DNA of 60,387 nucleotides, taken from positions 1 through 60,387 of the forward strand of contig JAVJSW010000043.1 in the NCBI GenBank assembly GCA_040219255.1, written 5' to 3'. The stretch comes from Sumerlaeia bacterium (GTDB taxonomy: Bacteria; Sumerlaeota; Sumerlaeia; SLMS01; JAHLLQ01). Of this stretch, positions 24,152 through 56,400 are shown piece after piece. The notes below the pieces were generated by a model. That model was not told the origin of the DNA and did no database searches. It saw nothing but the letters and a program-made list of their open reading frames with translations. Made by a program: the position numbers and the translations under genes. Numbering within the stretch: position 1 is the first letter of the stretch; each line of letters opens with the position of its first letter.

Positions 24152-27100
24152 TTACTCGATTTCGGATTCGTCCGGATAGCCCAGGATGCCGATCAGGTCG
24201 AACTCGGCGAACTGCAAGTGGAGGAACGCCGCGTCGGGGCGCGACTCGCTCGGCGTGCCCAGCGAGTACACATCCCAGGCCGCCGTGACGCCCACCTGCT
24301 CGCCTTCGGTCTGAGCCGTCGGCACCCGCATGTAGATCGTGTAAGCCTTATCTTCCTCGATGGAGGACGACAGGTTCGCCTCGCCGATCGGCACGATCCC
24401 GTAAGAAACCGTGTGCGTATTGTCCGCCGTCGAAAGGCGGAAACGCATCGTCGGGTTGTCGAGCGGGTCGCGCTCCTGAGACGTGATGACGGTGCGGAAG
24501 CGCACAAAGCGCGGTTCGTCCGCCGAGGCCGCCGGAACCGTCAGGGTTCCAGGCTTGGTGTTCCAGAAGCCGAAGCTGTTGCCCGGCAGAGTGGTCCGGG
24601 TGCTCAGGCTGAAGGAGGTCACATCGAACAGCGGCAGATCGAAGTTGCCGGGCGAACCGCCCGATTCCCACGCATCGGTGCCGCTGCCATCGTCGAAGGT
24701 GAAGTCCGGCAGATCCGCGACGACCGAGATCGTTTCCTGCGGGATGCGGAAGATGTCGACGCGCTCGAGGTTATAGCCCCCGGTCGCTTCGCCGTCGCCG
24801 AAGTTCAACAGGTCGAAGGCCAGTGTGTAGATCTGATCCTCACGCTTGAGATCGTAGATACCGATCTGCGGTTCGATCAGGAAATCCACAATGCCGTCGG
24901 CCCCATCGAGCGCGTTGCCTTCGCTCGTGCTGACGATTTCGCCCGTTCCGAATTCCTGGAAGTCGCGCGAGTTCATGCGCAGACGCATGCGCGGCGCATC
25001 CTCCAGGCTCGTCCCCTCGTAACTCACATAGCCGCGGTAGAGGTAGACCGGCCCCTGGCGGAGATCCACGTCGCCGGGCAGCGGCGACGGGTTCTCTTCC
25101 TGATCGAAGGCAAACAACTGCAAGGCCGAGTCGGGGGACTTATAGAAGCCGAACACGTTCTGATTAGCGCCCGGCGAAGTCAGCCGCAGCGACGACACCA
25201 GCGTCTGGTGGTTCGGCGGGATGAGGCCCTGCACCGCTGAGAACTCCCAGCCGTCGCCCTCTGAATCGAACAGGTAACGCGTCTGGCGCGATACCCGGTC
25301 CTCCAGCGGCGGCGGAGGCGTCGTCGGGTTCGGCGGAGTCGTCGGAACCGGCGTCGGTGTCGGTGTCGGGATGACCACCGGGAAGGTGGTCCGGCCAACA
25401 GGGATGTCGTTAAGGATTCCGATTTCGCCGACCGTACCGCCGCTGGCGGCCGAAGCGGCTTCCGTCACGGAGGTCGCGAAGCCGGTGAAAATCACCGAAT
25501 CGGAATCGGGACCCCAGGCGGGATAGATACCGCCCGCGTACTGATCCGGCCCGCTGGTGCGGGTCGCCAGAGCCCCCTCATAGGCCAGCACCGGTCCGCG
25601 ATTGTCGCGGGTCAGCGTCAGCTTCTGACCGACCGGTGGAGTCCGGCTCAGGTACGAGGTAACCGCGTTTTCGATCACGTAAATCTGATATTCCGAGAAA
25701 ACCCCCAGCGTCGGCGATGTCGGCAAGGCCGAGGGATCGGTGACGTCCGCCCGGTTCGACGCGAAGACCAGCCGTTCGCCATCGGAGGAGAAGCGCGGAT
25801 GGATTTCATTGGTCAAGGTCGAGTCGCTCAGAAGGTTCACCACCGGGACCACGGTCTGGCCCGGTTGGCTGCCGATCCGCGGAACCGCGTAGAGATTGAT
25901 GTCGCCCAATGTATCGACGGCGGAGAACACGACGACCGAATCGGTCGAGTCCACCGTCATCTCGCGAATCGCCGTCAGCGGCGAGGAGCCGACAAGCGTT
26001 CGGTTCGCGCCCTCCACATCGACCACGAACTCGCGATTGGAACCGTCGTACTCGACCGAGTAGATCGAGGTTCCGTCGGTGTAGAGGACGGAGTCGCTGG
26101 CGGTGGCCAGGGTGGCGGCGAAATGCGCGCTCTCTCCGGAGAGCGGGACCCGGGCGACCAACTGCTCGCCGTAGCCGTCGTTCGTCACCAGGTAGATCTG
26201 GCCTTCCGTCGGACTCGGCCGCACCGCGTACATGAGCAGGTTGTTGTCCGTGGTGGCTTCAAAGCTCACCACTTCCGGATCATTGACCTGGAAGATCTGA
26301 GCCGGGCGGCGGCGTTCGATGCGAATGAAGTCCTCGGACTCGGCCGATTGGCCGTAGCCGTCGTTGTAGGCGGTTTTCACTCGAGTCAAGTCGTTGTCGA
26401 CGAAGAACGCTTCCTTGCCGTTGGCCGCGAGGGCGGGCTGGCGGCCGAACTGATCGACCAGTTTGACCGCCGGCGGATTGATAAAGTTTTCGTTCGTCTC
26501 TTCGCTGGCCGCGTAAATGCGGATGCCGGAAATCTGGAAACCCTGATAATCGCGGCGCACTTCCAAAACCTGGTCGAAGGGGAACTCGCCGGTGTAGTCG
26601 TACTCGGGCAAGTACGAGGGACCGGTTTGCAGAGCTACCGCCACGCCCACCGAATCGCCCGTCGCCTCGCCCAAATAGAACCGGTAAGTGCGGAACTCGA
26701 ACTCTCCGGGCTCGAGGATCGGATCGTAAACCACTTCCTCTCCCCAGGTCGCCACGGGGATTTCGTCTTCGTCTTCCTCGGTGGAGACAGCGAACGCGGG
26801 TGAGTCTTTCGGCTCGTTGCGCGAGTCGCCGACGATCAAGCCGACGCGCCGGCCGCTCAAGCCAAGCGAGTCGATACTGCTCGCCGCGTTTCCATCTTCG
26901 TTGAAACGCCTCTCTTCCTCTGTCTCGCCGTTCAGAACGGTTTCCGTCGTGAATCGTTCCGCCAGGATTTCGATATAGTCGAACTCGTAGAACAGGCCTG
27001 TCGTGCCATCGGCTTCGGTCACCGAGTCGGTGACGTTGAAGAAGCCGAGCTCGTGCTTGATATCGATTTCCATAATCATCGGCGTGCGAGAGCGGCGCAG

Positions 27101-29806
27101 CTCTTCCGGCAGATCGAACGGCGTGGCGCTGCTCAACACATAGCGATAATTGGGGAAAAAGCGGCCGCGGGGGTTGTAGTTTCGTTCGCTCGCCGCAGTA
27201 TCCGTGGTCGGCGGATTGGACATGATGATGATGCCATCCGAAACGGCTCCGCCAAACTCGAAGTTCAAGAACGGGTCCTGCGCGCCCAGCGAACTGACTT
27301 CCGTCAAGTCGGGAAAGAGAGTCGTCGTGTCCACATAGCGCGGCACTTCGTCGGGCCTCAGGAAGGGAAATTCGTCATCGTTTCGGGCCGCCGGATCGCC
27401 AAAGTCCACCGAAGCCCGAACCCATGGGCCGGTGTCGGCGCCACAGTTCGATGACTCGGGGAATTCCGGATCTTCCGCACCCGGGGGTGCGCATTCCAGT
27501 GAAATGGCTTCATAATCGGCGGCGAAGTCGCTCACGTAGAGGCTTACGAGCTGGATGATTCGCAGGGGCGACGGGGCGAACTGGTTCGTGATAGCGTTGT
27601 AAGGGTTGGGCCGGCCATAGCCGTACTCGTGATGGAAGCCGTCGGGCGAGTAATTCCGAACCTGGCCGAGACCCTCGCGCCAGCCGTTGGGGTTGCCGAG
27701 AATGATCGTACCCTCAGGCGGGAAGGCTCCCTTGCGGGCCCCCTCCTCCTCCTCCGGTTCCGGCGGCAGTTTCGGCTCTGGCGCGAGCCCGCCGGTGTTG
27801 TCGATGTAAATGTAGGGATTCGGCGGCCGGTCGGCGGACTTGACCAGCACCTTGAACAAATCGGCTGATGAAATCGACGGGTTCGCCGACAAATAAAGCG
27901 CCGCCACACCGGTGATGATCGGGCAGGAAGCGCTCGTGCCGCTGAAGGGAATGTCCTGCGGCGGATCGTTGAAAGCCGAATCGCCGAAGGCGTCCGTGTA
28001 ATTGCCTTGGGGATCGATCAGGTCGAAGGGGTTCGGCTGGCTGTACCCCGGTCCGCCCTCGATGTCCGTGGTCACGATGCCCGACAGATCCCGGTCCTGG
28101 AAATAGAAGGGATCGGTCGGGGGCTGCGTGACGTTACGCAGTGAGTCGTTGAACGGGTTCAGGAACAGGCCGGGAGGCGAGTTGAAATCGTAGCTCGGTC
28201 CGACGAAGTCCAGTTTGCCTGAGAAACTCGCGTAGCTCACCCGCTCGCCCTGATCCGTCACGGCTCCCACGCTGTACGTGGCTTCGTAAAGGGCCGGGTA
28301 AGCCATGGGGCCGTAATCGTTGGCCGAAGATACAAAGTTCGACATCCCGAGATTGAACCGGCCCGAGGTGCGTGAAAACTCGAAGGCCAACTCAAAGCTT
28401 AGCAGCGGCGAGGGCCCCCCGTAGGAATGGTTGCCCACGTCGGCCTGAGCGTTCGTGGCTGTGGTGACGGCTGAAATAAAGTCATCGAAACTGGCCGAGA
28501 GCCCATCGCTGAAAACGCGGTAAGTCAGGATTTTCGCGCCGGGAGCGACACCGGTGACGCCGACGCCGTTGTTCTCGACCGCGGCGATCAGACCCGCCAC
28601 GGCCGTACCGTGGCCATCGACGCCGCCGGGGATGGTGCCGGAGTCCGGCAGACCATCGTTTTCCGCGAAGTCGAAGCCCAGACGCGGATCGATCATCGAG
28701 TCGCTGCGCGGATCGTCGATGTTTCCGCCGACCCAATAGTGGTCGTTCTCTTCCACCGGAATCAGATTGTCCGGGTTCGGCTCGTTGGGATTGAAGTACA
28801 ATCGGACGTTGTAATCCTCGTGATCGAGGTCCGTGCCGTCGTCGAGAACCGCGACGATGACGGGAAGTTGGGCGCCGAAATTGGCGAACAGCGTCGTCGC
28901 GTCCGTGGTGGGGCAATCGTCCGGATTGGGTGAGGGGCAGGGGTCATCCGGATCGCTGACGCGGATGTTCGGGTTCCAGGCGCGGGGTGCGTCCACGTCT
29001 TCGTCCATCACGCCGCGGCGGCGCTGCGTGTTTTCCTTCGTGTTCATCAGGTGCCACTGAAGCGGGAACAACGGATCGTCGCCAGCCCGCAATGCCGTCG
29101 AAGACTGAAGTTTCAGCGGCGCCGCCAGGACCGGATCGACCCACTTGACCAAGTCCCCGTCGCTCTTCATCAGGTCCCGCGAGAGGGCCAGAATCTGCTC
29201 CGAATCGCGATCCGAAGCATAAACGCTGAACGCGTTGGTGAATAGCTTGCTCTTCACCTTCAGGCCATGGGCGGCGAAGAAGGCGTTCCGCTGGTCCATT
29301 CCCACGCCGTCCTGGAAAATCACGATCAGGCGCCGAGGCACCGTGACGAGATGCTGGAGCGTGTTGCCACCATTCGTGTAAAAAGCCGTGTCAACCGACC
29401 GAACGTCCTGTAGACCGGCGGTCTTCGAGGCGACGAGGGCTTTGGCCTCGGAGGGGGAGACGCGGGCGACCACTTGCCGTTCGAAGGGGTTGATCCGGAC
29501 AGCGTCGAGTCCCGCTTCCTTCATCTTGCCCGAAGCGAGTTTCTTGAACTCGGAGAAGCCGATGCCGGAATCGAATTGCAGGACCGCCAGATCGGTCGCG
29601 GCTCGAAGCGGCACCTTCTCGGTCTTGTACAAGTAGTAGTGTTCGGGCTCGGGAAGGAGAGAGCGATAGGAGGCGGCGGAGGCTGGCGGCGGGCTCAGCG
29701 CGCCGGCGCCCAAAACCCCGGCGGCAAGCACCGCCGCGGCGGAAGCGGCCCATGCCAAAGAATTCGATTTGCGGGAGTTAGCGGGTTTCCCTGTGTTGAA
29801 CACCAT
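24152..29806 (-). CDS. large secreted S8 (subtilisin-like) peptidase with TolB/PD40-like propeller, PT linker and duplicated C-terminal domain
   Basis: Catalytic triad VAVLDDG, HGTAVAGLIAA, FSGTSASCP; HPRFSSDGERLVFASNR; PTPTPTP linker; signal peptide. Confidence 0.9.
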   Translation of the reverse strand: MVFNTGKPANSRKSNSLAWAASAAAVLAAGVLGAGALSPPPASAASYRSLLPEPEHYYLYKTEKVPLRAATDLAVLQFDSGIGFSEFKKLASGKMKEAGLDAVRINPFERQVVARVSPSEAKALVASKTAGLQDVRSVDTAFYTNGGNTLQHLVTVPRRLIVIFQDGVGMDQRNAFFAAHGLKVKSKLFTNAFSVYASDRDSEQILALSRDLMKSDGDLVKWVDPVLAAPLKLQSSTALRAGDDPLFPLQWHLMNTKENTQRRRGVMDEDVDAPRAWNPNIRVSDPDDPCPSPNPDDCPTTDATTLFANFGAQLPVIVAVLDDGTDLDHEDYNVRLYFNPNEPNPDNLIPVEENDHYWVGGNIDDPRSDSMIDPRLGFDFAENDGLPDSGTIPGGVDGHGTAVAGLIAAVENNGVGVTGVAPGAKILTYRVFSDGLSASFDDFISAVTTATNAQADVGNHSYGGPSPLLSFELAFEFSRTSGRFNLGMSNFVSSANDYGPMAYPALYEATYSVGAVTDQGERVSYASFSGKLDFVGPSYDFNSPPGLFLNPFNDSLRNVTQPPTDPFYFQDRDLSGIVTTDIEGGPGYSQPNPFDLIDPQGNYTDAFGDSAFNDPPQDIPFSGTSASCPIITGVAALYLSANPSISSADLFKVLVKSADRPPNPYIYIDNTGGLAPEPKLPPEPEEEEGARKGAFPPEGTIILGNPNGWREGLGQVRNYSPDGFHHEYGYGRPNPYNAITNQFAPSPLRIIQLVSLYVSDFAADYEAISLECAPPGAEDPEFPESSNCGADTGPWVRASVDFGDPAARNDDEFPFLRPDEVPRYVDTTTLFPDLTEVSSLGAQDPFLNFEFGGAVSDGIIIMSNPPTTDTAASERNYNPRGRFFPNYRYVLSSATPFDLPEELRRSRTPMIMEIDIKHELGFFNVTDSVTEADGTTGLFYEFDYIEILAERFTTETVLNGETEEERRFNEDGNAASSIDSLGLSGRRVGLIVGDSRNEPKDSPAFAVSTEEDEDEIPVATWGEEVVYDPILEPGEFEFRTYRFYLGEATGDSVGVAVALQTGPSYLPEYDYTGEFPFDQVLEVRRDYQGFQISGIRIYAASEETNENFINPPAVKLVDQFGRQPALAANGKEAFFVDNDLTRVKTAYNDGYGQSAESEDFIRIERRRPAQIFQVNDPEVVSFEATTDNNLLMYAVRPSPTEGQIYLVTNDGYGEQLVARVPLSGESAHFAATLATASDSVLYTDGTSIYSVEYDGSNREFVVDVEGANRTLVGSSPLTAIREMTVDSTDSVVVFSAVDTLGDINLYAVPRIGSQPGQTVVPVVNLLSDSTLTNEIHPRFSSDGERLVFASNRADVTDPSALPTSPTLGVFSEYQIYVIENAVTSYLSRTPPVGQKLTLTRDNRGPVLAYEGALATRTSGPDQYAGGIYPAWGPDSDSVIFTGFATSVTEAASAASGGTVGEIGILNDIPVGRTTFPVVIPTPTPTPVPTTPPNPTTPPPPLEDRVSRQTRYLFDSEGDGWEFSAVQGLIPPNHQTLVSSLRLTSPGANQNVFGFYKSPDSALQLFAFDQEENPSPLPGDVDLRQGPVYLYRGYVSYEGTSLEDAPRMRLRMNSRDFQEFGTGEIVSTSEGNALDGADGIVDFLIEPQIGIYDLKREDQIYTLAFDLLNFGDGEATGGYNLERVDIFRIPQETISVVADLPDFTFDDGSGTDAWESGGSPGNFDLPLFDVTSFSLSTRTTLPGNSFGFWNTKPGTLTVPAASADEPRFVRFRTVITSQERDPLDNPTMRFRLSTADNTHTVSYGIVPIGEANLSSSIEEDKAYTIYMRVPTAQTEGEQVGVTAAWDVYSLGTPSESRPDAAFLHLQFAEFDLIGILGYPDESEIE

Positions 29807-30170
29807 GCGAGATCCTCGGTTCCGTTCGATGCGGTCGTTTTTCAGACATCCATCATGCAAATGACGTCTTTGCCCAGATTTCCCGGGCAGCGTCAATCCC
29901 TACGCATTGCCGATGCACGGCGTAGTTTTGAGAAGGGTGGGACGCCAGGGGCAAGGGATCAAGTGCATTTGGAGAAAAACCCACGCGCACTTTTCAACCC
30001 TTAGTTTAACACAACAAATAAAGACCGAGCCCCCGCCCCGCCCTCTATGACCCCCAACCGCTCCGCGCCCACTCCCCCTTCCCGTCGACTTTCCCTTGCT
30101 CAATGCGGCTTCGGATGGCTCAACAAGACGATTCGCGTCGTGATCCCGCACACCCCGCACAGGAGCCGCC

Positions 30171-31118
30171 ATGCCCCTCGAAGATTTTCTCGACATCCGC
30201 CCCCACGTCCAGGACGCGCTGGCCTCCGGCAAACCACTGGTCGCCCTGGAGTCGACCATCATCACCCACGGGCTGCCCCGGCCGGTGAACCTGGAAACCG
30301 CCCGCGGCTGCGAAGACACGGTGCGCTCGCACGGCGCCGTGCCCGCCACCATCGGCATCCACGACGGCAAACTGGTCGTCGGCCTCGAGTCTCAGGAAAT
30401 CGCCGAACTGGCCAACGCCGACGATGTCGCCAAGACCAATCTGAGCAACCTCGCCATGGTCATCGCCGGAGGTGGCTATGGCGCCACCAGCGTCAGCACC
30501 ACGCTCCTCGCGGCACGACTGGCGGGCATTCGCGTCGTCGCCACGGGGGGCATCGGCGGCGTCCATCGCGGCTTCGGCGAAGTTTTCGACATCTCCAGCG
30601 ACCTCACCTCCCTCGCCCATGCAGGAGGTGTGCTCGTCTCCGCCGGCGCCAAGGTCATCCTCGATGTGGCCGCGACCCGCGAACACCTCGAAACCCTCGG
30701 CATCCCCGTCGTTGGCTGGCGGACCGACTGGTTCCCCCTCTTCTACAGCGTCGGCCGCGACATCGCTGTCGACTACCGCGTCGAAGACGCGAGCGCCGTC
30801 GCCCGAGGCCTCCACACCCATGAGGCCCTCGGCCTCGAGACCACCATGCTGGTGGTCGCCGACCCGCCGGAAGAAGACGCCCTCGATCCCGAATTGCTCG
30901 GCGAAGCCATCGAACACGCGCAAGCGGAAGCGCATGAGGACGGCATCACAGGCCGCGACGTAACCCCCTATCTACTGGCCCGGATCAAGGACCTGACCCA
31001 GGGCGAGAGCCTTCGAGCCAACCTTTCCCTGATCCACAACAACTGCGCCATCGCGGCCCAAATCGCCTGCGCCCTGGCCAAGTCGGGAACCAAGGCCGCC
31101 GAGCCGGCGGCCGTCTAG
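30171..31118 (+). CDS. psuG: pseudouridine-5'-phosphate glycosidase
   Basis: VALESTIITHGLP, ATGGIGGVHRG, DISSDL, AGAK, VTPYLL. Confidence 0.93.
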   Translation: MPLEDFLDIRPHVQDALASGKPLVALESTIITHGLPRPVNLETARGCEDTVRSHGAVPATIGIHDGKLVVGLESQEIAELANADDVAKTNLSNLAMVIAGGGYGATSVSTTLLAARLAGIRVVATGGIGGVHRGFGEVFDISSDLTSLAHAGGVLVSAGAKVILDVAATREHLETLGIPVVGWRTDWFPLFYSVGRDIAVDYRVEDASAVARGLHTHEALGLETTMLVVADPPEEDALDPELLGEAIEHAQAEAHEDGITGRDVTPYLLARIKDLTQGESLRANLSLIHNNCAIAAQIACALAKSGTKAAEPAAV

Positions 31119-31157
31119 GACTTGCGCCCCGGTGCCCGGCTCCGCCACCTGAGCCCT

Positions 31158-32396
31158 ATGATGCCACCTCCTCCCGCGCCGCGCCGCGTCCTGATCCTTA
31201 ACCACAACCTCCGCTATCATGGCACCTACTTCCGCGCCCTCGAAGTCGGCCGCCGCCTGGCCCGGCGCGGTCACGTCGTCACGTTGGTCACCACTGGACC
31301 GGGCTACTATCGGGCCCGGAAAGAACAGCTCGGGAACCTGACGATCTGGGAATCGCCGAGCGGCTTCTCCCCCGCTCTCACCAGCCCCGACGACGGCTGG
31401 TCGCCGTTGGGGCTGCTCTGGAGGCTCGGCCTCGCAGTGTTCCAACGCTGGGACGTCGTTTACGCCTTCTCCCACAAACCGGTCGATGCCTGGCCCGCGC
31501 GTTGGGCGCGCCGCCTCCGGGGCTCGGCCTGGATCGCCGACTGGTGCGATCTCTATGGCGGCCCGGGCATCCACGCCATGCGCCGCGCCGGACGCGAGAA
31601 AGTCCACGCCCTGCAAGACCGGGTCGAAGCCTGGGACGGGCGCCTGGAAGAAGCCACCGCACGCGACTGCGATTTTCTCACAGTGATTAGCGCCGACCTC
31701 CTGAGCCGCGCCGAGGAACTCGGCCGCGGCGAGGAGGCCCTCCACCTTCTGCGCAACGGAGCCAACCTGGACGGCATTTCCCCCCAGGACCGGCGCGACT
31801 GCCGCGCCCGACTTGGGCTGGCGCACATTACCGCTCCGCTGCTCGGCTACATCGCGAACTATCATCCCGATCAGGACCTCCTGCTGGACGCGGTGGGGCG
31901 CGCGGCCCGCGAAAACCGGGAAGCCCAATTCATCGTTGCCGGCAATCCCCTCTACGATCAGGACAAAGCCCTGGACAAGCACGGCCTGACGGATCGAACC
32001 CTGATCCTTGGGCGGATCTCCGACGAGGTCCTGCCCTGGTTCTTCGGCGCCTGCGACGTCCTCCTTCTGCCGCTCAGCGACACCCCCTTCAATCGCAGCC
32101 GCTTTCCCTATAAAGCCACCGACTACCTGGCGGCGGGCCGGCCTCAGGTGGCCTGCGCCGTCGGCGACGTGCCGGCCGTTCTCGGCGGCGCGCCGGAGGT
32201 GGCAGCGCTTTGCGAGCCCACCGCCGAGGCGTTCGCCGCCGCCGCGCTGGCACTCCTCGACGACCCGCCGCGGCGTCAGAGCACGGGCGAAAACGCCCGC
32301 CGCCGCGCCGAGGACCGCTTCGCCTGGAACGCCTTGGTGCAATCCCTGCTCACCGCGTATAACGGGACGCGGACCCGCGACCGGCATCGGCTCTAG
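31158..32396 (+). CDS. GT4-family glycosyltransferase
   Basis: LARRGHVVTL; CDVLLLP...RFPYKATDYLAAGRP...VGD. Confidence 0.85.
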   Translation: MMPPPPAPRRVLILNHNLRYHGTYFRALEVGRRLARRGHVVTLVTTGPGYYRARKEQLGNLTIWESPSGFSPALTSPDDGWSPLGLLWRLGLAVFQRWDVVYAFSHKPVDAWPARWARRLRGSAWIADWCDLYGGPGIHAMRRAGREKVHALQDRVEAWDGRLEEATARDCDFLTVISADLLSRAEELGRGEEALHLLRNGANLDGISPQDRRDCRARLGLAHITAPLLGYIANYHPDQDLLLDAVGRAARENREAQFIVAGNPLYDQDKALDKHGLTDRTLILGRISDEVLPWFFGACDVLLLPLSDTPFNRSRFPYKATDYLAAGRPQVACAVGDVPAVLGGAPEVAALCEPTAEAFAAAALALLDDPPRRQSTGENARRRAEDRFAWNALVQSLLTAYNGTRTRDRHRL

Positions 32397-32459: not shown

Positions 32460-33359
32460 ATGACAGCCGTAAAGGAACTCGAAAAACAAGAGACTTACGC
32501 TTCCTATCAGGAGCAGTTCACCGAGCAGCATCAGTCCGGCCAGCCGGGCATCCAGCAGGAAATGCATCCCAAGCCGATGACCGACGATCCGGATTACCGA
32601 GGCGCCGAGAAATTGGCGGGTCAGGTGGCCCTGATCACCGGAGGCGACAGCGGCATCGGCCAGGCCGTGGCCATCGCCTTCGCCAAAGAAGGTGCCAGGG
32701 TGGCGGTCAACTTTCTGGACGTGGAAACCGAGGACGCCCTCGCCACAAAGGCCAAAGTGGAAGAATACGGCGGCGAGATCGCCCTGATCCCCGGCGACAT
32801 CCAGGAGCGCGAAACCTGCGACCGCATCGTCCGCGAAACCCTCGAACGCTTCGGCCAACTCGACATCCTGGTCAACAACGCGGCCTATCAGATGGCGCAG
32901 GAAAGCCTGACCGACATCAGCGACGAACAACTCGAACGCACCTTCAACACGAACGTCCTCGGCGCCATCCGGGTCACTCGCGCCGCTCTTTTTCACATGA
33001 AGGACGGTTCGCGTATCATCAACACGACCTCGGTGACGGCCTACCGGGGCAGCAGCCATCTGCTGGATTACTCCTCCACCAAGGGCGCACTCGTGACCTT
33101 TACCCGAAGCCTCGCGGCGGCCCTGGTCGACAAGAAAATCCGCGTCAACGCCGTGGCGCCAGGGCCGGTCTGGACGCCGTTCATTCCGCCCGCCTTTCCC
33201 GCCGAGGCGATGCCGAAATTTGGTGGGCAGGTCCCCATGCAACGCGCCGCCCAGCCATGCGAGCTGGCGCCCGCCTACGTCTTCCTGGCCTCCACCGACT
33301 CGACCCACGTCGCGGGCCAAACCATCCACGTCAACGGCGGCACGCCCGTCGGCGGATAA
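32460..33359 (+). CDS. SDR oxidoreductase (YghA/general stress protein 39-like)
   Basis: ITGGDSGIG, LVNNAA, YSSTK, NAVAPGPVWTP. Confidence 0.92.
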   Translation: MTAVKELEKQETYASYQEQFTEQHQSGQPGIQQEMHPKPMTDDPDYRGAEKLAGQVALITGGDSGIGQAVAIAFAKEGARVAVNFLDVETEDALATKAKVEEYGGEIALIPGDIQERETCDRIVRETLERFGQLDILVNNAAYQMAQESLTDISDEQLERTFNTNVLGAIRVTRAALFHMKDGSRIINTTSVTAYRGSSHLLDYSSTKGALVTFTRSLAAALVDKKIRVNAVAPGPVWTPFIPPAFPAEAMPKFGGQVPMQRAAQPCELAPAYVFLASTDSTHVAGQTIHVNGGTPVGG

Positions 33360-33393
33360 GCCCCGCGAAACCCACCTGGAAAGGAATCTTCCC

Positions 33394-33672
33394 ATGCCTC
33401 AGCAACAAAGCCAGAAAACCACCGATCACACCACCATCCGCAAATGGGCGGAAAGCCGCAAGGGCCAGCCCGCCGCCGTGCGCCGGACCGGCCGCGACGA
33501 GGACCCGGGCCTGCTGCGCATTCGCTTCTCCGATGAGCGAAGCGACGACCTGGAAGCCGTCACCTGGGACGAATGGTTCGACAAGTTCGAGGAGAGCAAG
33601 CTGGCCTTCGTCTATCAGGACGAAACGACGGAGGGCGGAGCGAGCCGGTTCAATAAACTGGTGAGCCGCTAA
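33394..33672 (+). CDS. conserved small hypothetical protein typical of stress clusters
   Basis: TTDHTTIRKWAE.R.G.PA...GLLRI.F...WDEWFDKFEE..LAFVYQ...SRFNKLVSR; GGAAAGGA RBS. Confidence 0.8.
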   Translation: MPQQQSQKTTDHTTIRKWAESRKGQPAAVRRTGRDEDPGLLRIRFSDERSDDLEAVTWDEWFDKFEESKLAFVYQDETTEGGASRFNKLVSR

Positions 33673-33675
33673 AAT

Positions 33676-33691
33676 TGGCACCGGGTTTGCT
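33676..33691 (+). promoter_or_regulatory. sigma-54 (-24/-12) promoter
   Basis: TGGCAC-CGGGT-TTGCT is an exact match to TGGCAC-N5-TTGCW. Confidence 0.75.
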
Positions 33692-33701
33692 CAGTCTATT
33701 C

Positions 33702-33770
33702 TCAGGCAAAGACCGGCGCGTTTCTCGACCTCCTGTGTGTACGCTTCACGAGAAACGCGCCTTTTCCTTT
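33702..33770 (+). ncRNA. candidate sigma-54-dependent small RNA with anti-SD loop
   Basis: Predicted +1 near 33702; perfect 13-bp stem 33715-33727/33749-33761; 21-nt loop beginning ACCTCCT; TTTTCCTTT tail. Confidence 0.55.
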
Positions 33771-33919
33771 AAATCCGCCCCCGCGATCTGAACCGTCCTT
33801 GCTCCGGCACCGCTCCTAGGAGACACTCCGGCCAAACGCTCAGAGGCTCTGGGCCCGCCCGGTATCTTCTTGCCCGGTACCTTCATTCTCTCCCTACATT
33901 CAGACAAGGAACGCCGCAT

Positions 33920-34918
33920 ATGTCCGAAACCGCATCCTTCGCAGAGGACCGCTACGACAAGATGCGCTATCGCCGCTGTGGCCGCAGCGGCCTCGTCCTG
34001 CCGGAAGTTTCCCTCGGTCTCTGGCAAAGCCTCGGCGAAAAGGGCAATGAAGCCCTTTGCAAAGAAGCCTGCTTCTATGCCTTCGACCAGGGCGTCAACC
34101 ACTTCGACTTGGCAAACAACTACGGACCGCCCTTCGGTTACGCCGAGGAATCGTTCGGCCGGGTTCTGAAAGAAATGCCCCGCGACGAACTCATCATCTC
34201 TACCAAGGCCGGCTATCGCATGTGGCCCGGGCCGTTCGGCGAGGGTGGCAGCAAAAAGTACCTGGTGGCCAGTCTGGATCAGTCCCTCAAGCGCATGGGC
34301 CTCGATTACGTGGACATTTTTTACCACCATTGCCCCGACGACCGGGTCATGATGGAGGAATCGCTGGAAACGCTGGACCTGATCGTGAAGCAGGGCAAAG
34401 CCCTGTACGTCGGCGTCAGCAGCTATCGCGGTCATCAATTCGCCGAGGCCGCCGAACTGGTCCGCGCCCGGGGCTGGGCGCCACTGACCATCCACCAGCC
34501 GATGTACAACATGGTGGACCGATGGGTGGAATCGGAGTTGATGCCCCAGACCGAGCGCACCGGCACCGGAATCATCGCCTTCTGCCCGCTGGGCCAGGGG
34601 CTCCTGACGGACAAGTACCTGCGCGGCGTGCCGGAGGATTCGCGCGTGGCGCGCACCCCGCACTTGCAGGAGCGGCTGGAAAAATGGCGCGTCGAGGGCT
34701 GGCTGGCCAAAGTGGCGCGGCTGAACGACTTCGCGCAGGAACGCGACATGACGATGGCCCAGTTGGCCATCGCCTGGCTGCTGCGCGATCCGCGCCTGAC
34801 GAGCGTCCTGATCGGCGCCTCGCGCATGGACCAACTTAAAGAGAATCTGGCCGCCGTGCGCAAGCCGCCCCTGACCAAGGAGCACTGCGAAGCCATCGGC
34901 GCGATTCTGACGGAGTGA
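33920..34918 (+). CDS. aldo/keto reductase (YghZ/L-glyceraldehyde-3-phosphate reductase-like)
   Basis: YRRCGRSGL.LP..SLGLW, HFDLANNYGPP, ISTKAGY.MWPGP, SLKRMGLDYVDIFY. Confidence 0.92.
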   Translation: MSETASFAEDRYDKMRYRRCGRSGLVLPEVSLGLWQSLGEKGNEALCKEACFYAFDQGVNHFDLANNYGPPFGYAEESFGRVLKEMPRDELIISTKAGYRMWPGPFGEGGSKKYLVASLDQSLKRMGLDYVDIFYHHCPDDRVMMEESLETLDLIVKQGKALYVGVSSYRGHQFAEAAELVRARGWAPLTIHQPMYNMVDRWVESELMPQTERTGTGIIAFCPLGQGLLTDKYLRGVPEDSRVARTPHLQERLEKWRVEGWLAKVARLNDFAQERDMTMAQLAIAWLLRDPRLTSVLIGASRMDQLKENLAAVRKPPLTKEHCEAIGAILTE

Positions 34919-35175
34919 AAATGGGCGGGCAAAAATACCCGCTTTTGTAAGAAATCACACCCCTGCGTTGCATAGGAATCGGTGGGCGGAACGTTCGGAG
35001 GCGAAGAGCCGGGACGCCTAATCCAAACCGATTATTGGCATGCCAAACTTTTCTCTGGACACACCAACGGACTTTATTAAGAGTCCCGCCATTCCCGGGG
35101 GGTCAGCCGCCCCAAAGTTTGAGAAAGTTTTCACAAACCTCCCGGACAATCATCGACGGAGTTCTCTCCTTAATA

Positions 35176-36705
35176 ATGCTCTCTTTTCTTTCTCATCCCC
35201 GGCGCCATGTCTTCCTGACCGCCGCTGGAATCCTTGCCGTCACTCCCCTGTGCGCGCAGGTGACCTTCGATTTCGACTCGGCCGCCGACCTCGATTCCGC
35301 CATCGTCAGCGGCGACACCAACTATTTCCAAATTTCCACCGCCCAGGACCACGATGGCTCCTCGTCCTCGCTCCAGTTCTTCGACCCGGCCGTGAAGCCC
35401 GCCATCAACCTGCTGACCTCCACGGAAGAGCCGGGCTATCCCCAGGACCCCTTCGAGTCCTTTACCTATGAAGTTCCGATCGCGCTGACCTCGGGCACGA
35501 TCACCGTGGACTTCTACGATCCCTACGGTTCGCCCCCTCCGGGTCCGACGACGTTCGAATGGCTCGGCAGCATCATCCTGGAAGACGCCGACAACCCGGC
35601 CGATTTCATCGCCATCGAACTGACCCGGCTGAACTACGGCGGCGGTCTCTACTACGCCAGCGAAGGCGTCGACACGAACAGCGACTCGGTCTTCGATGCC
35701 GACACCGGCACGATCCGCACCGTCGGCTGGCATACGGCTGAATTCCTCATCTCTGCCACGGAATCGCTCGTCCGCGTGGACGGCGGCGCCATCGCCGACG
35801 AAACGGTCGGCCCCGGCGGCTCGGCGAACCTGCGCCTGCGCTTCATGGCCGACACGCCCACCGGCGGTGGCATGGGGAATTACCTGACGACTCCGGACCC
35901 GATTTCGATTCCGGCCATTCCGGGCGACACCTTCTACGACAACATCGTCTTCACGGCGACGGCGCCCTCCGCCGCGACGGCGACCTTTGGCTTCGAAGAC
36001 GGCGAGACCGACACGCCTGACGAGTTCATGGGGCCGACGGGCTTCGACAATCCGAACATGGCGGGCTTCTTCAACGATTTCGCCACCACCACGACCCAGT
36101 TCACGGAAGGCGCCCAGTCCGGCACCTTCTTCAACGGCGTCGAGACCTTCAAGAGCATTGCCTTCGACCTGACCGGTGCCAGCGCAGGCACCGCCACCGT
36201 CTGGTTCTACGACAGCCTTGGCCCAAATGCGGACAGCGACAAGCTCGGCGGCTCGATCATCATCGAGAACGGCAGCGATCCCTCCGACTTCCTGGCCGTC
36301 GAAATCTGGAACTTCCCCTACCCGAGCCTCGACCCCGCCCCGCCGAACAACTACTACCTCACCCGCTCGACCGCTGGCGGCGTTGGACCTACCGACTTCC
36401 AGAGCGGCGTCCTGCCGAACCGCACCGTCGGATGGCACCGCGTCGATTTCGCGCTCACCAACGCGAGCACCACGGTCACCGTCGATGGCATAGGCAGTGC
36501 TACCGTTACCGGCCCGGGACTTTCCACCAACCCGAAGATCCGCCTGATGGCGGATTCGGCTTCCTCCGGCGGCTTTGCGAATTATGTAACCATCGACGAG
36601 CTGGACATCCTTTACATGGCGACCCGCGAGCCCTACGTCTTCTTCGACGACGTGACGCTGCCGCTGTCCGCCGCCTCCGTGACCCACTGGGAACTCTACC
36701 AGTAA
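35176..36705 (+). CDS. secreted acidic beta-rich protein with two tandem repeated domains and C-terminal SVTHWELYQ tail
   Basis: Signal peptide ending PLCA-Q; internal repeat (RTVGWH twice; LRFMAD/IRLMAD; GSIILE/GSIIIE). Confidence 0.85.
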   Translation: MLSFLSHPRRHVFLTAAGILAVTPLCAQVTFDFDSAADLDSAIVSGDTNYFQISTAQDHDGSSSSLQFFDPAVKPAINLLTSTEEPGYPQDPFESFTYEVPIALTSGTITVDFYDPYGSPPPGPTTFEWLGSIILEDADNPADFIAIELTRLNYGGGLYYASEGVDTNSDSVFDADTGTIRTVGWHTAEFLISATESLVRVDGGAIADETVGPGGSANLRLRFMADTPTGGGMGNYLTTPDPISIPAIPGDTFYDNIVFTATAPSAATATFGFEDGETDTPDEFMGPTGFDNPNMAGFFNDFATTTTQFTEGAQSGTFFNGVETFKSIAFDLTGASAGTATVWFYDSLGPNADSDKLGGSIIIENGSDPSDFLAVEIWNFPYPSLDPAPPNNYYLTRSTAGGVGPTDFQSGVLPNRTVGWHRVDFALTNASTTVTVDGIGSATVTGPGLSTNPKIRLMADSASSGGFANYVTIDELDILYMATREPYVFFDDVTLPLSAASVTHWELYQ

Positions 36706-36744: not shown

Positions 36745-37338
36745 ATGAAGACTCCGAGTTTCCGGCGCGGCTTTACGCTGATCGAACTTCTGATCGTGGT
36801 GGCGATCATCGCCATCCTGGCGGCTATCGCCGTTCCGAATTTCCTGGAGGCGCAAACGCGCTCGAAAATCTCTCGCGCCCAGGCCGATATGCGCACCATC
36901 GCCACCGGCCTGGAAGCCTATCGCGTGGATACGAACAAGTACCCAAAAGAGGAGAACCTCTTCGGGCCCTTCACTCCCCGGCTGGCCGCCATCACATCCC
37001 CCATCGCCTACCTGACCAGCGTTCCCAACGATCCCTTCTTCCAGCGCGCGGCGGCCGCCGCCGGCAGCGGCATCGGCCAGTCGGACCCCGCTTTCTACTA
37101 CGCGTCGGGGAATCTGGGGCCGGGCGGCGCGTCGGTGTTCGACACGCCAGAGGCCACCCTGTCGCTTTACTCGCTGGCGAGCCGCGGACCGGATCTGGCC
37201 ATCTTCATGCCCTACTGCGTCGTGCATCCGGTGGCCAAGAGCCGGGATTGGGACGTAGTGTATCAATACGACCCAACCAACGGCACGATAAGCGACGGCG
37301 AAATCTTTCGCTTCAGCCCCGGCACCATCGGCGGCTAA
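36745..37338 (+). CDS. prepilin / GspG-like pseudopilin
   Basis: RG-FTLIELLIVVAIIAILAAIAVPNF type IV N-methylation motif; C-terminal YDPTNGTISDGEI. Confidence 0.93.
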   Translation: MKTPSFRRGFTLIELLIVVAIIAILAAIAVPNFLEAQTRSKISRAQADMRTIATGLEAYRVDTNKYPKEENLFGPFTPRLAAITSPIAYLTSVPNDPFFQRAAAAAGSGIGQSDPAFYYASGNLGPGGASVFDTPEATLSLYSLASRGPDLAIFMPYCVVHPVAKSRDWDVVYQYDPTNGTISDGEIFRFSPGTIGG

Positions 37339-51492: not shown

Positions 51493-51806
51493 TAGGGGCC
51501 TGCTTCCGAGGCAAGGGCCTCGCGCAGGCGGTCGCTGGAGACGGTGCCGAGGACCCGCCGGACGCGCCCGCCGCCGCGAAAGACGAGCACGGCGGGCGTG
51601 CCGTGGGCGTCGTGGCTGGCGGCCCATTCGCGGTAACGGCCGATTTCGAGCTGGATGACTTCCAGGTCCTCGATCTCGCGGGTCAAGGCCTCGGCCTGCT
51701 CCGCCACGGTTTGCGCGCCGGGATGAAAGGCATCCGTCAGCACCACGGCGACGGTGCCGGTGGCCTGGGCGAGGACTTGGGTGAGGGCGGTTTCTTCGGG
51801 GGTCAT
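51492..51806 (-). CDS. thioredoxin-fold protein lacking CxxC
   Basis: TPAVLVFRGG.RV.R..G pattern of the thioredoxin C-terminal half; no Cys; ATGA overlap with the upstream gene. Confidence 0.6.
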   Translation of the reverse strand: MTPEETALTQVLAQATGTVAVVLTDAFHPGAQTVAEQAEALTREIEDLEVIQLEIGRYREWAASHDAHGTPAVLVFRGGGRVRRVLGTVSSDRLREALASEAGP

Positions 51807-53329
51807 GTTGGCTCCTCCAAATCCTCGCGCGAAATCCCCAGCTTCTTCATCGCGCGGTAGAGCGTCGCCTTATGCACGCCGAGCATTTCCGCTGCGGCGG
51901 TGGCGTTTCCGGCGGCGGAGGCGAAGGCTTCGCGGATGGTGTCTTCGGTCAGTTCGGGTTTTTGCTGGCGGAGCTGGCGCATCGCGGGGCGATCGATGGG
52001 CGCGGCGCCAGGGTCGTGATGGGGCAGAGCGGCCACTGGCCGGCCCCAGTGGGCGTCGCCATAGCGGGCGCCGGGGGCCGGCGGCGCGATGCCTTCCTGG
52101 CCGGCGAAGAACACGCGCGAGGGGGGCTGGTGTGTGGGCGGCGGCGAGGCGTCGAGGCCGCCGAGAACCCGCCGCTCCTCGATCCAGCGCGCCACGGCCT
52201 GGCCCCCGACGGCGTCGCCGAGGGTTTCGACAACGAGGCGCTCGACGCAGTTGCGCAGTTCGCGCACGTTTCCCGGCCAGGGGTAGGTTTCCATCAGGCG
52301 CAGCGCGTCCGGCGTGAAGGCTCGCACCGGCCGGCGGTACTTCCCGGCGTACTGTTTTAAGAACCCATCGGCCAGCAGTGGCAGATCGCCCCGTCGTTCC
52401 CGCAACGCCGGCAAGTGGATGCGCAGGACGCTGAGCCGATGATAGAGGTCGGCGCGAAATCGGCGCGCGGCGACGCCGCTTTCGAGCGCCACGTTCGTCG
52501 CCGCCACAATCCGCACATCGACGCGGATTTCCGATTCGGAACCGACGCGCTCGACGATGCCTTCTTCCAGGGCGCGCAGTAGCTTGGCCTGCGCCATCAG
52601 GGGCATATCGCCGACTTCGTCGAGGAACAGCGTCCCGCCGTCGGCGCGCTCGAAGCGGCCCTTGTGCTGGCGATGGGCGCCGGTGAAGGAGCCGCGTTCG
52701 TGGCCGAAGAATTCGCTTTCAAACAATTCATCGCTCAGCGCCGAACAATTCACCGGAACGAACGGCCCATCGGCCCGTTCGCTGCGCTCGTGGACGGCTT
52801 TGGCGACGAGTTCCTTGCCCGTGCCGGTCTCGCCTGTGATCAGCACGGGCGCCTCGGTCGGGGCATAGAGTGAGATTTTTTGATACACCTCGAGCATGGC
52901 GTGGCTCTGGCCGACCAGCCCGTGGTACGCGCCGATGCCCACCGCGCGGCGGCGATGGCGCTTGGCTTCGGTGACATCGTGGGCGGTCAGCTCGACGGCG
53001 GCGGGGCCCTGCGGCGCGCCCTCCAGCATGACGGAGAGGGGCTGCTGGCCGTCCTCGCCGTGGCGGGCGAATTCCAGGAGGTAGTTGGAGAGGCGCTCGC
53101 GTTCCTCGGCCAAATCCCGCGCCACCGCCGCCAGAGGCCACAGCGGATGACCGCGCCGCAGCGGCAGGGGCAGTTTCGGGCGCAGGTCCAGGACGCCGTC
53201 GAGCAGCCACGGCGGCGCTTCCTCGAGGCGCCACACGCCCTCCTCGCCGCGCGCCAGCCGCACACGATTCGCGCGCGGCGACAGGATCAGCGCGTCGTTT
53301 GCTGGCGAAGCGGGGAAGTCGAGTGGCAC
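51803..53329 (-). CDS. sigma-54-dependent transcriptional activator (bEBP) with Fis HTH
   Basis: GETGTGKE, ESEFFGHERGSFTGA, GGTLFLDEVG, FRADLYHRL, WPGNVREL, AAEMLGVHKATLY. Confidence 0.93.
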   Translation of the reverse strand: MPLDFPASPANDALILSPRANRVRLARGEEGVWRLEEAPPWLLDGVLDLRPKLPLPLRRGHPLWPLAAVARDLAEERERLSNYLLEFARHGEDGQQPLSVMLEGAPQGPAAVELTAHDVTEAKRHRRRAVGIGAYHGLVGQSHAMLEVYQKISLYAPTEAPVLITGETGTGKELVAKAVHERSERADGPFVPVNCSALSDELFESEFFGHERGSFTGAHRQHKGRFERADGGTLFLDEVGDMPLMAQAKLLRALEEGIVERVGSESEIRVDVRIVAATNVALESGVAARRFRADLYHRLSVLRIHLPALRERRGDLPLLADGFLKQYAGKYRRPVRAFTPDALRLMETYPWPGNVRELRNCVERLVVETLGDAVGGQAVARWIEERRVLGGLDASPPPTHQPPSRVFFAGQEGIAPPAPGARYGDAHWGRPVAALPHHDPGAAPIDRPAMRQLRQQKPELTEDTIREAFASAAGNATAAAEMLGVHKATLYRAMKKLGISREDLEEPT

Positions 53330-53438: not shown

Positions 53439-56400
53439 CTACTTCAGCACCAGCACCAATTGGTTCGGCTGGCCGGGAGAAATGCGGGTCCATTCGGAGA
53501 CGGCGTATTCCTCTCCGCCGCGTTCGAGGACCGCCCGGTAATCGCCTTCCGGCAGTTGGAAGAAGCGCACGGAACGGCGATCCATGGGGTAGTTGGTGAC
53601 GACGGCGCGGGAGCCGGAGCCGTCCTGGCGATCGATGGTCAGGTTGCCCTGCGCCGCCTCGTCGGTTTCCACGGCAACGATGATATCCGCTTCGCCGGCG
53701 AAGAGGAAGAAGTCCTGCGGGACAGGTTCTTCGCTGGGGCTGATGGAGATAGGGTCACTGACGCGGGTGCGCAGCACGCCATTGGAGATGTAAGGCGTCA
53801 GAACGCCGGGGAAGACTTCCGCGGTGAAGCCGCCGGGTTTCGAGAGGTCGGCCTGAAGGAACGTTTCGTTGCCGGTCGGTTCCGCCAGCATGATGTCGCT
53901 GACACGCTCCATCGGTGCGCCGTTCATGAAGACCTGACCGGTGAGGGTGACGCGGCCCGAGAAGTCGAAGCTCACCTCGGCGCTTTGGCCAGCGGTCAGC
54001 GTCACATCCTTCTGCGCCGAGTCTCCGGTATCGCTGTCGGTGACGGCGATTTTCCAGAAACCGGCGGAGGGAAGTCTGCTCTCGTAGCGGCCACCGGTGG
54101 CCTGGAGAGGTTCGCCCACGGGGGCGCCGCCGTCTTTGAGGAAGAAGATTGTGGCCTCGGCCATGGGTTCGCCACCGAGACCCGTCAGGGTGCCGTAAAC
54201 GGTGGGGGCGGGTTCCAGGACGATCTGAACGGGCGCGGCGCCAGCCTCGCTGAGTACCGCTTCCGTCACTTCCGAGGACATGTCATCGGTCTGTGCCTGA
54301 AGCCGATACGTGCCGGGGGTGATGGGGCCGATGGCGAATCGTCCCATGGCGTCGGTCGCGACCTCGACCTTGCGGGCCCAGGGCGGGCCAGCGTTGGTCT
54401 CCATGCCCAGCGGCGGGTTTTCCAGCGTGACCCGGGCTCCCGGGACGGGGGCGTTGGTGCCGCTCTGGACCACGACGCCCTCGAGAGAGAGGGGTTCCTG
54501 GAGCGGAACGACGATTTCCGAGACGTCGCTGTCGGTGGCGTAGGCGAAGTCGAGGGAGCCTTTGCGGGGAGGCATGCCCTGGGCGCCTTCGAGTTCCGAG
54601 ACCTCGGCGCGGTAGTTGCCCGGCGACATGTCGTCCATCTCGAAGACACCGGCAGGGTCGGTGACGATGGTTTGAGCGACGATGTCCTGGCCCGGGCCAT
54701 TGAAGCGCATGACTTCCCGGCTGAGGCGAATGCGATAATCGGAGCGCAGGGTGCCGTCGGGCTCGCTGACGAGGAAGGTGACGGCGCCCTTGGGGCGCAG
54801 GCGGAAGAGAATCTCGCCGTCGTAGATGCTGACGTTGTGCTTGGTCTGTTCTTCGTAGCCCTCGGCCGAGGCGGTCAGGGTGGCGAGGGGCGTGTCGACC
54901 GGAACGCCATAGATCGTGAAGTAACCGTCCGGATCGGTCTGGCCGGAAAGATAGCTGTCGTTGGTGAAGAGCGTGGCGTTGGCGATGGGCTCGTCCTCCT
55001 CGGTCAAAACGCGGCCCGAGATGTAATCGCCTTCGCTCAACTGGAAGTCCACGTCTTCGCGGACCTCGCCCGGCTTGAGAGTCAGGCGGACGGGCTTGGG
55101 CTCCATGAGTTGAGAGCTGGAGGAAATGCCGACACGGGCCTCGCCAGTCACGGGAGACACGCGTTCGATGACGTATTCACCTTCGGCGTCGGTGTAGCCC
55201 TGCTCTTCGAACTTGCGGGCGGCGTAGGGGGAATTGTCGCGGTCGGTATGCTCGAACATGACCTGCAAATCGGGATAGGGATCGCCATCGGGCCCGGTGA
55301 CGGTGCCCTTGATCTGGGCGTAGGCGTCGAGAACGAGTTCGATTTCCTCCCCTTCGCGTGGCGTCACCGTCTTGGCGAGAATACCCTTCTCGGACGAGGT
55401 TGCCAGATGGATCGGGGCCCCGATGTAGGCGGTGAAAGCGAAGCGTCCGGCCTCGTCGGTCATGGCGTCGCCATAGATCGGGCCGGTGTAGAAGACGGGA
55501 TTGTCGGGCACGACGGTCTGGCCGTCGGGTTCATAGACGATGCCCTTGATTTCGTTGCCTCGGCGCAACTCGCCGCGGACCTCGACGGTCTTGCCGGGGC
55601 GGATGCCGCTGACGATCAGGCTGTCCTGGGTCAAGGGGGCGTCGATTTTCTTGCGGCCTTCGTCGGCCGGCAGCCAGGGCGTTGGCAGATCGAGGGGGAT
55701 GCGGAGGGACGATCCGGGCTCTCCCACGTCTTCTACGTAGAGGTTCACTTCGAACCGGCCGTCTTCGTCGCTGCGCACCTGGAAGGCTTCCGACTGATAG
55801 GTCATGTCGCCAAGCATTGTCATCAGGCGCACGCCTTTGACACCTTCGCCGGTTTCGATGTCGACGAACTGGCCGCGGATGGTGGCCGGTTCGGGCAGTT
55901 TCAGGTTCACGACCTTGTCGGCGCCGCGGGTGAGGGCCACTTCCTCGCGCACGACCGCATCGAAGCCGAGCGTCATCTCCGATTGGGTGCTGGCTTTGAC
56001 TTCGTAGTTGCCGCTGGGCAGGTCGGGAAACCGATAGGCACCTGTGGAATCGGTCAGGGATTCCAGGTTTCGCACGAGGCGCACGGCGGTGTTCGGACCG
56101 GGCCGGGGCGAGAGTTCGACGCGAACGTTTTCGGCGGCGCGGCCGTCGTGCTGGGTGACACGGCCGCGCAGGCTGGCCTCGCGGCCGATGAGGACGATTT
56201 CGACACCGGCGGAGCCGGCGGGGACGGGTTCGGATTCGCCGGGGGCGAAGCCGCTGGCTGTGGCTGGGAGAGTATGCTCTTTGTCGTCGCCCAACTCCAT
56301 ACCCATCAGGGTGAAATTGCCCTGGCCGTCCGTCCGGGTCCAGGACGACGGATGGGGACCGGCTTCCACGATCTGATCGCCAGGACGTTTCGTGATGATC

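Follow-up and report, generated by a model that had tools for sequence, protein, structure and literature searches.

Just past the last of four co-directional genes in this Sumerlaeia bacterium lies a short stretch of DNA (33676-33770) that raises the question of whether it is the promoter and body of a free-standing small RNA, or simply the place at which the transcript of the upstream genes ends. The preliminary description of this locus had proposed the former: an RNA of about 70 nt, driven by sigma-54 and displaying an anti-Shine-Dalgarno motif in the loop of its hairpin. We examined this proposal in the window, by which we mean the whole 60,387-nt stretch of DNA analysed (contig C43 of the source genome, which comprises 83 contigs and 5.35 Mb at 63.6% GC and is 92% complete), as well as in the rest of that genome and in its relatives.

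Anatomy of the element and its gene neighbourhood

When the sequence of 33300-34100 was read, every letter of the sigma-54 -24/-12 motif TGGCAC-CGGGT-TTGCT was found, with a spacing of ten bases from its GG to its GC as in the consensus TGGCAC-N5-TTGCW, and setting the C of the -12 GC (33690) as position -12 places the +1 near 33702, as proposed. The perfect 13-bp stem, the 21-nt loop with ACCTCCT as its first letters, and the tail directly 3' of the stem were likewise read where the preliminary description had placed them (Table 1). Its statement that the ~70 nt contain no ORF holds for the RNA proper but not for the element as a whole, which is spanned by a mechanical 38-codon ORF with a TTG start (33675-33791). 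The start of this ORF lies 5' of the predicted +1, and it lacks a ribosome site.

Table 1. Positions of the element's parts, of neighbouring genes and of a recurrent class of sigma-54-like sites (coordinates are those of the window unless another contig is named).
Feature	Position	Strand	Remarks
Indigoidine-synthase-A-like (IndA-like) gene	30171-31118	+	Pfam/NCBIfam
GT4 glycosyltransferase gene	31122-32396	+	Pfam/NCBIfam
SDR oxidoreductase gene, 299 aa, PRK06701 type	32460-33359	+	Pfam/NCBIfam
92-codon ORF, final gene of the four-gene unit	33394-33672	+	no Pfam/NCBIfam family
Sigma-70-like match TTGGCA-16-TATTCT	33675-33702	+	9 of 12; consensus scan; overlaps the sigma-54 motif
Exact sigma-54 -24/-12 consensus TGGCAC-N5-TTGCT	33676-33691	+	matches all 12 specified positions; one of 4 exact in the genome
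Hairpin 5' arm GGCGCGTTTCTCG	33715-33727	+	
Open 21-nt loop ACCTCCTGTGTGTACGCTTCA	33728-33748	+	ACCTCCT equals the 16S 3'-tail core
Hairpin 3' arm CGAGAAACGCGCC	33749-33761	+	
T-rich tail TTTTCCTTT	33762-33770	+	7 of 9 T, first four consecutive
Aldo/keto reductase gene, L-glyceraldehyde-3-phosphate-reductase-like	33920-34918	+	PF00248 2.2e-62; PRK09912 1e-110, below the model's cut-off
Two-mismatch sigma-54-like sites at 43 nt from start codons	C11:78200, C37:220902, C39:107406, C60:108103, C60:123225, C60:237484, C60:295595		

With a predicted RNA fold of -26.6 kcal/mol, 33695-33775 was more stable than all 200 of its shuffled versions (z -3.88). The stem consists of 13 perfect pairs with 69% GC. 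Folded in isolation, the loop reaches just -0.6 kcal/mol, so that its 21 nt are really open. The sigma-70-like match that overlaps the sigma-54 motif is one of 3 such sites that the consensus scan returned in 8 kb, against 0.8 expected.

The gaps among the four upstream genes measure 3, 63 and 34 nt and no other strong hairpin was found between these genes, from which we infer that the IndA-like, glycosyltransferase, SDR and 92-aa genes form one unit. The sigma-54 motif begins 4 nt past the TAA (33670-33672) of the 92-codon ORF, and the hairpin (33715-33761) begins after 23 more bases. On the far side, the start of the reductase gene (33920) lies 229 nt past the motif and 150 nt past the tail. 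Further downstream, a 556-aa ORF at 35035-36705 has a coding-like GC3 of 0.81 and no Pfam/NCBIfam match, and it is followed at 36745-37338 by a gene for a protein with a prepilin-type N-terminal methylation signature, which weakly matches "Verru_Chthon cassette" models. On the minus strand the window also holds two genes for very large proteins of secreted type, a 1,914-aa S8 subtilase with a PD40 repeat (24152-29896) and a 1,219-aa protein of carboxypeptidase-regulatory-like repeats (53439-57098), the latter adjoining the sigma-54 activator gene at 51803-53329.

Comparison of the hairpin with the terminators of the genome

We compared the hairpin with other terminator-like hairpins of the genome using a scan for perfect stems of at least 10 bp with 5 or more T among the 8 bases that follow. 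The scan returned 110 hairpins, 68 of them within 100 nt 3' of a gene on the same strand and 19 inside genes; that 68 of the 110 stand just past same-strand genes indicates that intrinsic termination is in use in this genome. With its start 42 nt past the stop codon, the hairpin under study lies at a typical distance for the terminators of the genome, and its 13-bp, 69% GC stem and its tail (33715-33770) fit the set. The features that it shares with intrinsic terminators are therefore the stable GC-rich stem, the U-tract directly 3' of it, and the proximity to the stop codon of the last gene in a co-directional unit. What differs is the loop: the short terminator loop of 3-8 nt is absent, the loop here being 21 nt long and unstructured, and a consensus scan for loops of 3-8 nt did not list this hairpin.

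Nominal loops of at least 15 nt are present in 27 of the 110 hairpins. Of these, 23 fold further (-2.3 to -13.7 kcal/mol), and four, the loop at 33728-33748 among them, are truly open large loops. CCTCC is present in the loops of 3 of the 110 hairpins. An open loop carrying an anti-Shine-Dalgarno motif is thus unusual, but not unique, in this genome.

As to what the hairpin does, a role in terminating the upstream operon accounts for it in full, and we infer that termination takes place at 33715-33770. Polymerase arriving from the IndA-like/glycosyltransferase/SDR/92-aa unit would pause on the U-tract, the GC-rich stem of 13 bp would form, and release of the transcript would follow some 95-100 nt past the stop codon. 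The sigma-54 motif in the 42-nt spacer would then be cryptic or a product of chance, and the large loop's anti-Shine-Dalgarno letters would be without an established role. That 33715-33770 is a plain rho-independent terminator of the four-gene unit, and nothing more, is on balance probably correct and is the reading that we favour.

The sigma-54 motif, the open loop and the case for a small RNA

The alternative that survives best is the one originally proposed, in which sigma-54 polymerase, requiring an activator, would start an RNA of ~67 nt near 33702. This RNA would share the operon's terminator and would consist of 13 free bases, the 13-bp stem and the 21-nt loop before its tail, and its ACCUCCU loop would block ribosome-binding sites. 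We regard this as possible but rather unlikely, and the evidence on it is divided. The sigma factor on which it depends is encoded in the genome (one Sigma54_DBD match, 211.9 bits), so the proposal does not fail for want of rpoN, and of 24 matches to Sigma54_activat 19 have E values of 1.6e-50 or better. With rpoN and ~19 strong activators, the sigma-54 machinery is present and rich. In addition, the motif is exact, stands in non-coding DNA, and is followed at short distance by a strong terminator. By arithmetic, the probability that an exact motif ends by chance 10-200 nt 5' of any of the 279 terminator-like hairpins with a stem of at least 8 bp is ~0.02 per genome, and among the motif hits with up to 2 mismatches the site at 33676-33691 is the sole one that is exact, stands outside coding sequence and has a strong hairpin within 200 nt. 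The rarity of such adjacency in one genome favours a real link. We would like to note that the weight of this argument depends on how common minimal one-hairpin small RNAs are, and that in a survey of ~250,000 windows some tens of motif-terminator pairs would be expected by chance.

Against the small RNA stands the number of exact motifs, which is that expected by chance. The window contains one exact motif, and with up to one mismatch it contains 2 against 1.38 expected, a count that 39 of 100 shuffles reach. Genome-wide there are 4 exact motifs in 5.35 Mb against ~4.4 predicted by arithmetic from base composition. In its favour, 3 of these lie in DNA called intergenic (17% of the genome by a home-made gene call), against 0.69 expected under a first-order model. 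One of the three, on contig C37, was rejected as an intergenic site because it lies inside a long open frame that the gene caller missed; removing it leaves 2 against 0.69, a mild excess. The frame in question (C37:67466-68823, minus strand) has ~430 codons, spans a 1.36-kb gap in the gene call, and probably represents a genuine gene whose codon usage is atypical. The sole other exact motif in true intergenic DNA, at C54:25717-25732 on the minus strand (locus L046), begins shortly past the stop codon of a small DUF5989 gene (78 aa). The next gene, 157 nt further on, encodes a fasciclin-domain protein, which is uninformative as to function.

The position of the motif also speaks against a working promoter. 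Sites with two mismatches lie 20-100 nt before same-strand start codons in 50 cases, against 19 in the control orientation, and the working sigma-54 promoters of this genome likely sit in that range. All three exact sites called intergenic are beyond it, their distances to the following gene being 157, 229 and 304 nt. The base that follows TGGCAC is G in 52% of the likely-promoter set, against 27% of the sites in coding sequence; at 33676-33691 it is C. As a separate observation, seven two-mismatch sites lie exactly 43 nt 5' of called start codons (Table 1), which may point to a group of related promoters or to a cassette present in several copies. A search of 33380-33720 for an inverted repeat of at least 10 nt that might serve as an activator site found none. 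Nor was any link found between the element and the activator gene at 51803-53329, to which the preliminary description had drawn attention; the nearest activator gene is 18 kb away. On the motif alone, the odds that it is a working promoter are no more than even.

Among the listed sequencing runs, those found to contain the stretch are three DNA runs from one study and no RNA run. A variant of the site was encountered when the contigs of these three runs were compared over 32460-34920. The contig from one run (X1) is 361 nt long at a depth of 3.4, covers 33556-33916, and carries 5 differences (1.4% divergence), including 33661 G>A, 33690 C>T, 33781 C>G and 33818 A>T. The second of these turns the -12 element from TTGCT into TTGTT and destroys its GC, leaving the hairpin and tail unchanged. 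The base affected, the C of the -12 GC, is among the near-invariant bases of sigma-54 promoters. If the change is real, it is a natural allele without the motif and hence weak evidence against constraint, the depth being low enough for an error to be possible. The unchanged hairpin is uninformative because the divergence is just 1.4%. The differences in this low-depth contig also indicate a closely related strain within the same study.

The loop itself offers the small RNA some support. Its 7-mer ACCUCCU is the core of the genome's own 16S 3' tail GGATCACCTCCTTTCT, and use of Shine-Dalgarno sequences is clear in this genome, the corresponding words being overrepresented 4- to 8-fold between -18 and -7 relative to called starts. 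The chance of finding CCTCC in a 21-nt loop is ~3% by arithmetic from composition. Using RNAduplex, we paired 3,815 start regions with the loop, entered as a string offset by one base (33729-33749), and as controls used 10 shuffled loops in which the first seven letters of this string, CCTCCTG, were kept. The loop performed no better than the shuffled loops and no target stood out among the 3,815 start regions: its minimum duplex energy was -27.4 kcal/mol against shuffled minima of -26.2 to -31.2, and it gave 1,132 duplexes at or below -14 against 888-1,765 for the shuffled loops. A further point against the small RNA is that a search of the genome, which is 92% complete, did not find Hfq.

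Small RNAs that have their own promoter in the 3' end of a gene and share its terminator include MicL and DapZ of enterobacteria. The present locus resembles these in having a promoter-like motif just past a stop codon and a terminator that, as that of the mRNA, would end both transcripts. It differs in that the candidate motif is of sigma-54 type and that the predicted RNA would be the terminator hairpin only, a minimal and unusual architecture that counts against the small RNA. Reported small RNAs that depend on sigma-54 and an activator include Qrr (Qrr1) of Vibrio, Pxr of Myxococcus and NcS25 of Burkholderia. The likeness to these lies in a -24/-12 motif before a short, terminator-ended candidate RNA in a genome with rpoN and many activators, and the difference in that no Rfam match, activator site, adjacent activator gene or conservation was found here.

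The display of an anti-Shine-Dalgarno motif in hairpin loops also has precedents. CcsR and NfeR1 display such a motif and are real regulators (PMC8034643, PMC10746234), and the CcsR/cuckoo/NfeR1 family (alpha-r14) of Alphaproteobacteria carries an invariant, conserved CCUCCUCCC in two or three loops, lies beside DUF1127 genes, and is served by RpoH- or sigma-70-type promoters (PMC8034643, PMC10746234). The element at 33676-33770 is similar to these in that an anti-Shine-Dalgarno loop lies 3' of a small gene of unknown function and ends at a terminator. In contrast, it has one hairpin with ACCUCCU rather than CCUCCUCCC, its 92-aa neighbour has no Pfam match, and no relatives were found. None of the features that define the family is present in the element.

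Searches for relatives of the element gave little that would favour a small RNA. A cmscan of 33000-34500 against Rfam 15 with E up to 10 returned 3 matches, all far below the gathering score and none overlapping 33676-33770, and no covariance model of the Rfam small RNA families, including Qrr, GlmY and alpha-r14, matched the element. The paralogs envisaged in the preliminary description were not found in the genome either, the short blastn matches being coincidences in coding sequence. When the 701 nt of 33300-34000 were compared with 60 relatives, just two short matches were retrieved, both coding. The pattern of promoter plus loop start occurs in 0 of the 72 other genomes of the class and in 0 of 74 of the phylum (the phylum set comprises 75 species genomes, among which the source is the sole member of its genus). 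A covariance model built from the single sequence entered twice and searched in the 72 other class genomes gave a best E outside its own genome of 0.076 per genome, and its four weak matches are unrelated sequences.

The genes next to the element are themselves narrowly distributed. Among the 24 other genomes of the order, no ortholog was found of the 92-aa gene or, at E 1e-60, of the SDR gene, which makes this gene pair accessory here. Translated searches located homologs of the 92-aa protein at 3 loci on genome contigs (46-55% identity) and at 10 loci on metagenome contigs (45-57%), and these are too distant for comparison of intergenic DNA. The homologs occur in an Arthrobacter, a Bryobacteraceae MAG, an Actinomycetota MAG and soil-type metagenome contigs; the gene is thus a patchily distributed small gene that belongs to no Pfam/NCBIfam family. 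Downstream of 12 of these distant loci (two of which are identical in sequence; a thirteenth, L019, was excluded as a partial match), neither a sigma-54-like motif nor a CCTCC loop was found, and in 5 of the 12 a strong hairpin lies directly 3' of the homolog. None of the four other neighbouring genes was found beside the distant homologs.

The absence of a conserved relative, paralog or family in these searches lowers the standing of any small RNA at this locus, and in its fullest form the idea becomes more doubtful still. That form would be an orphan, lineage-specific, sigma-54-dependent riboregulator of 67 nt, with a loop that mimics the anti-Shine-Dalgarno tail of 16S rRNA a promoter in the 3' UTR of the SDR/92-aa gene pair, and a 3' end at the terminator that it would share with this pair; we consider it improbable.

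Further readings and what the locus may mean

Two other readings are, in our judgement, very unlikely, and each has some evidence in its favour. By analogy with CcsR, processing might release a stable RNA from the 3' end of the operon transcript, comprising the hairpin and its flanks, which would act as a regulator through its anti-Shine-Dalgarno loop and would need no promoter of its own. CcsR RNAs arise by cleavage of the mRNA of a small stress gene in its 3' UTR, and the layout of a small gene followed by an anti-Shine-Dalgarno hairpin and terminator is like that found here (PMC8034643); the openness of the loop and its identity with the 16S tail core would also suit such a role. Against this, the locus has a single hairpin rather than repeated modules and ACCUCCU rather than CCUCCUCCC, the searches described above yielded no Rfam match, conservation or target signal, and the ~3% chance of CCTCC in a loop of this size applies equally.

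The motif could otherwise be a sigma-54 promoter for the reductase gene, with a 218-nt leader in which the hairpin would be a leaky or regulated stop. The reductase gene is indeed the next gene on the same strand, and the scan returned no sigma-70-like site for the interval 33770-33920. The distance of 229 nt to its start is nevertheless outside the 20-100 nt at which the likely promoters of this genome sit, and the 9 orthologs of the reductase that were found (49-58% identity) lie in other, unrelated gene contexts, with no motif of up to 2 mismatches upstream in any of 7 regions (the other 2 were left out, as the reductase gene stands at the edge of its contig). Moreover, the hairpin persists in the predicted fold of 33702-33940 (239 nt), which is not unusually stable (z -0.84), and as a transcript from 33702 would have just 13 nt before the stem, no competing antiterminator can form. 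An ordinary leader fold with no antiterminator speaks against a regulated leader.

A plain terminator of the four-gene unit therefore remains the reading that we favour for this locus. Both ingredients of the proposed small RNA, transcription driven by sigma-54 and anti-Shine-Dalgarno motifs displayed in loops, are already known from other systems, and an exact promoter consensus beside a terminator does not amount to a small RNA gene unless conservation or transcript ends support it. Should the small RNA nevertheless prove to be real, it would be a minimal one, starting inside a 3' UTR and using the loop of a terminator as its seed, and it would provide an example from a small, mostly uncultured phylum without described small RNAs.
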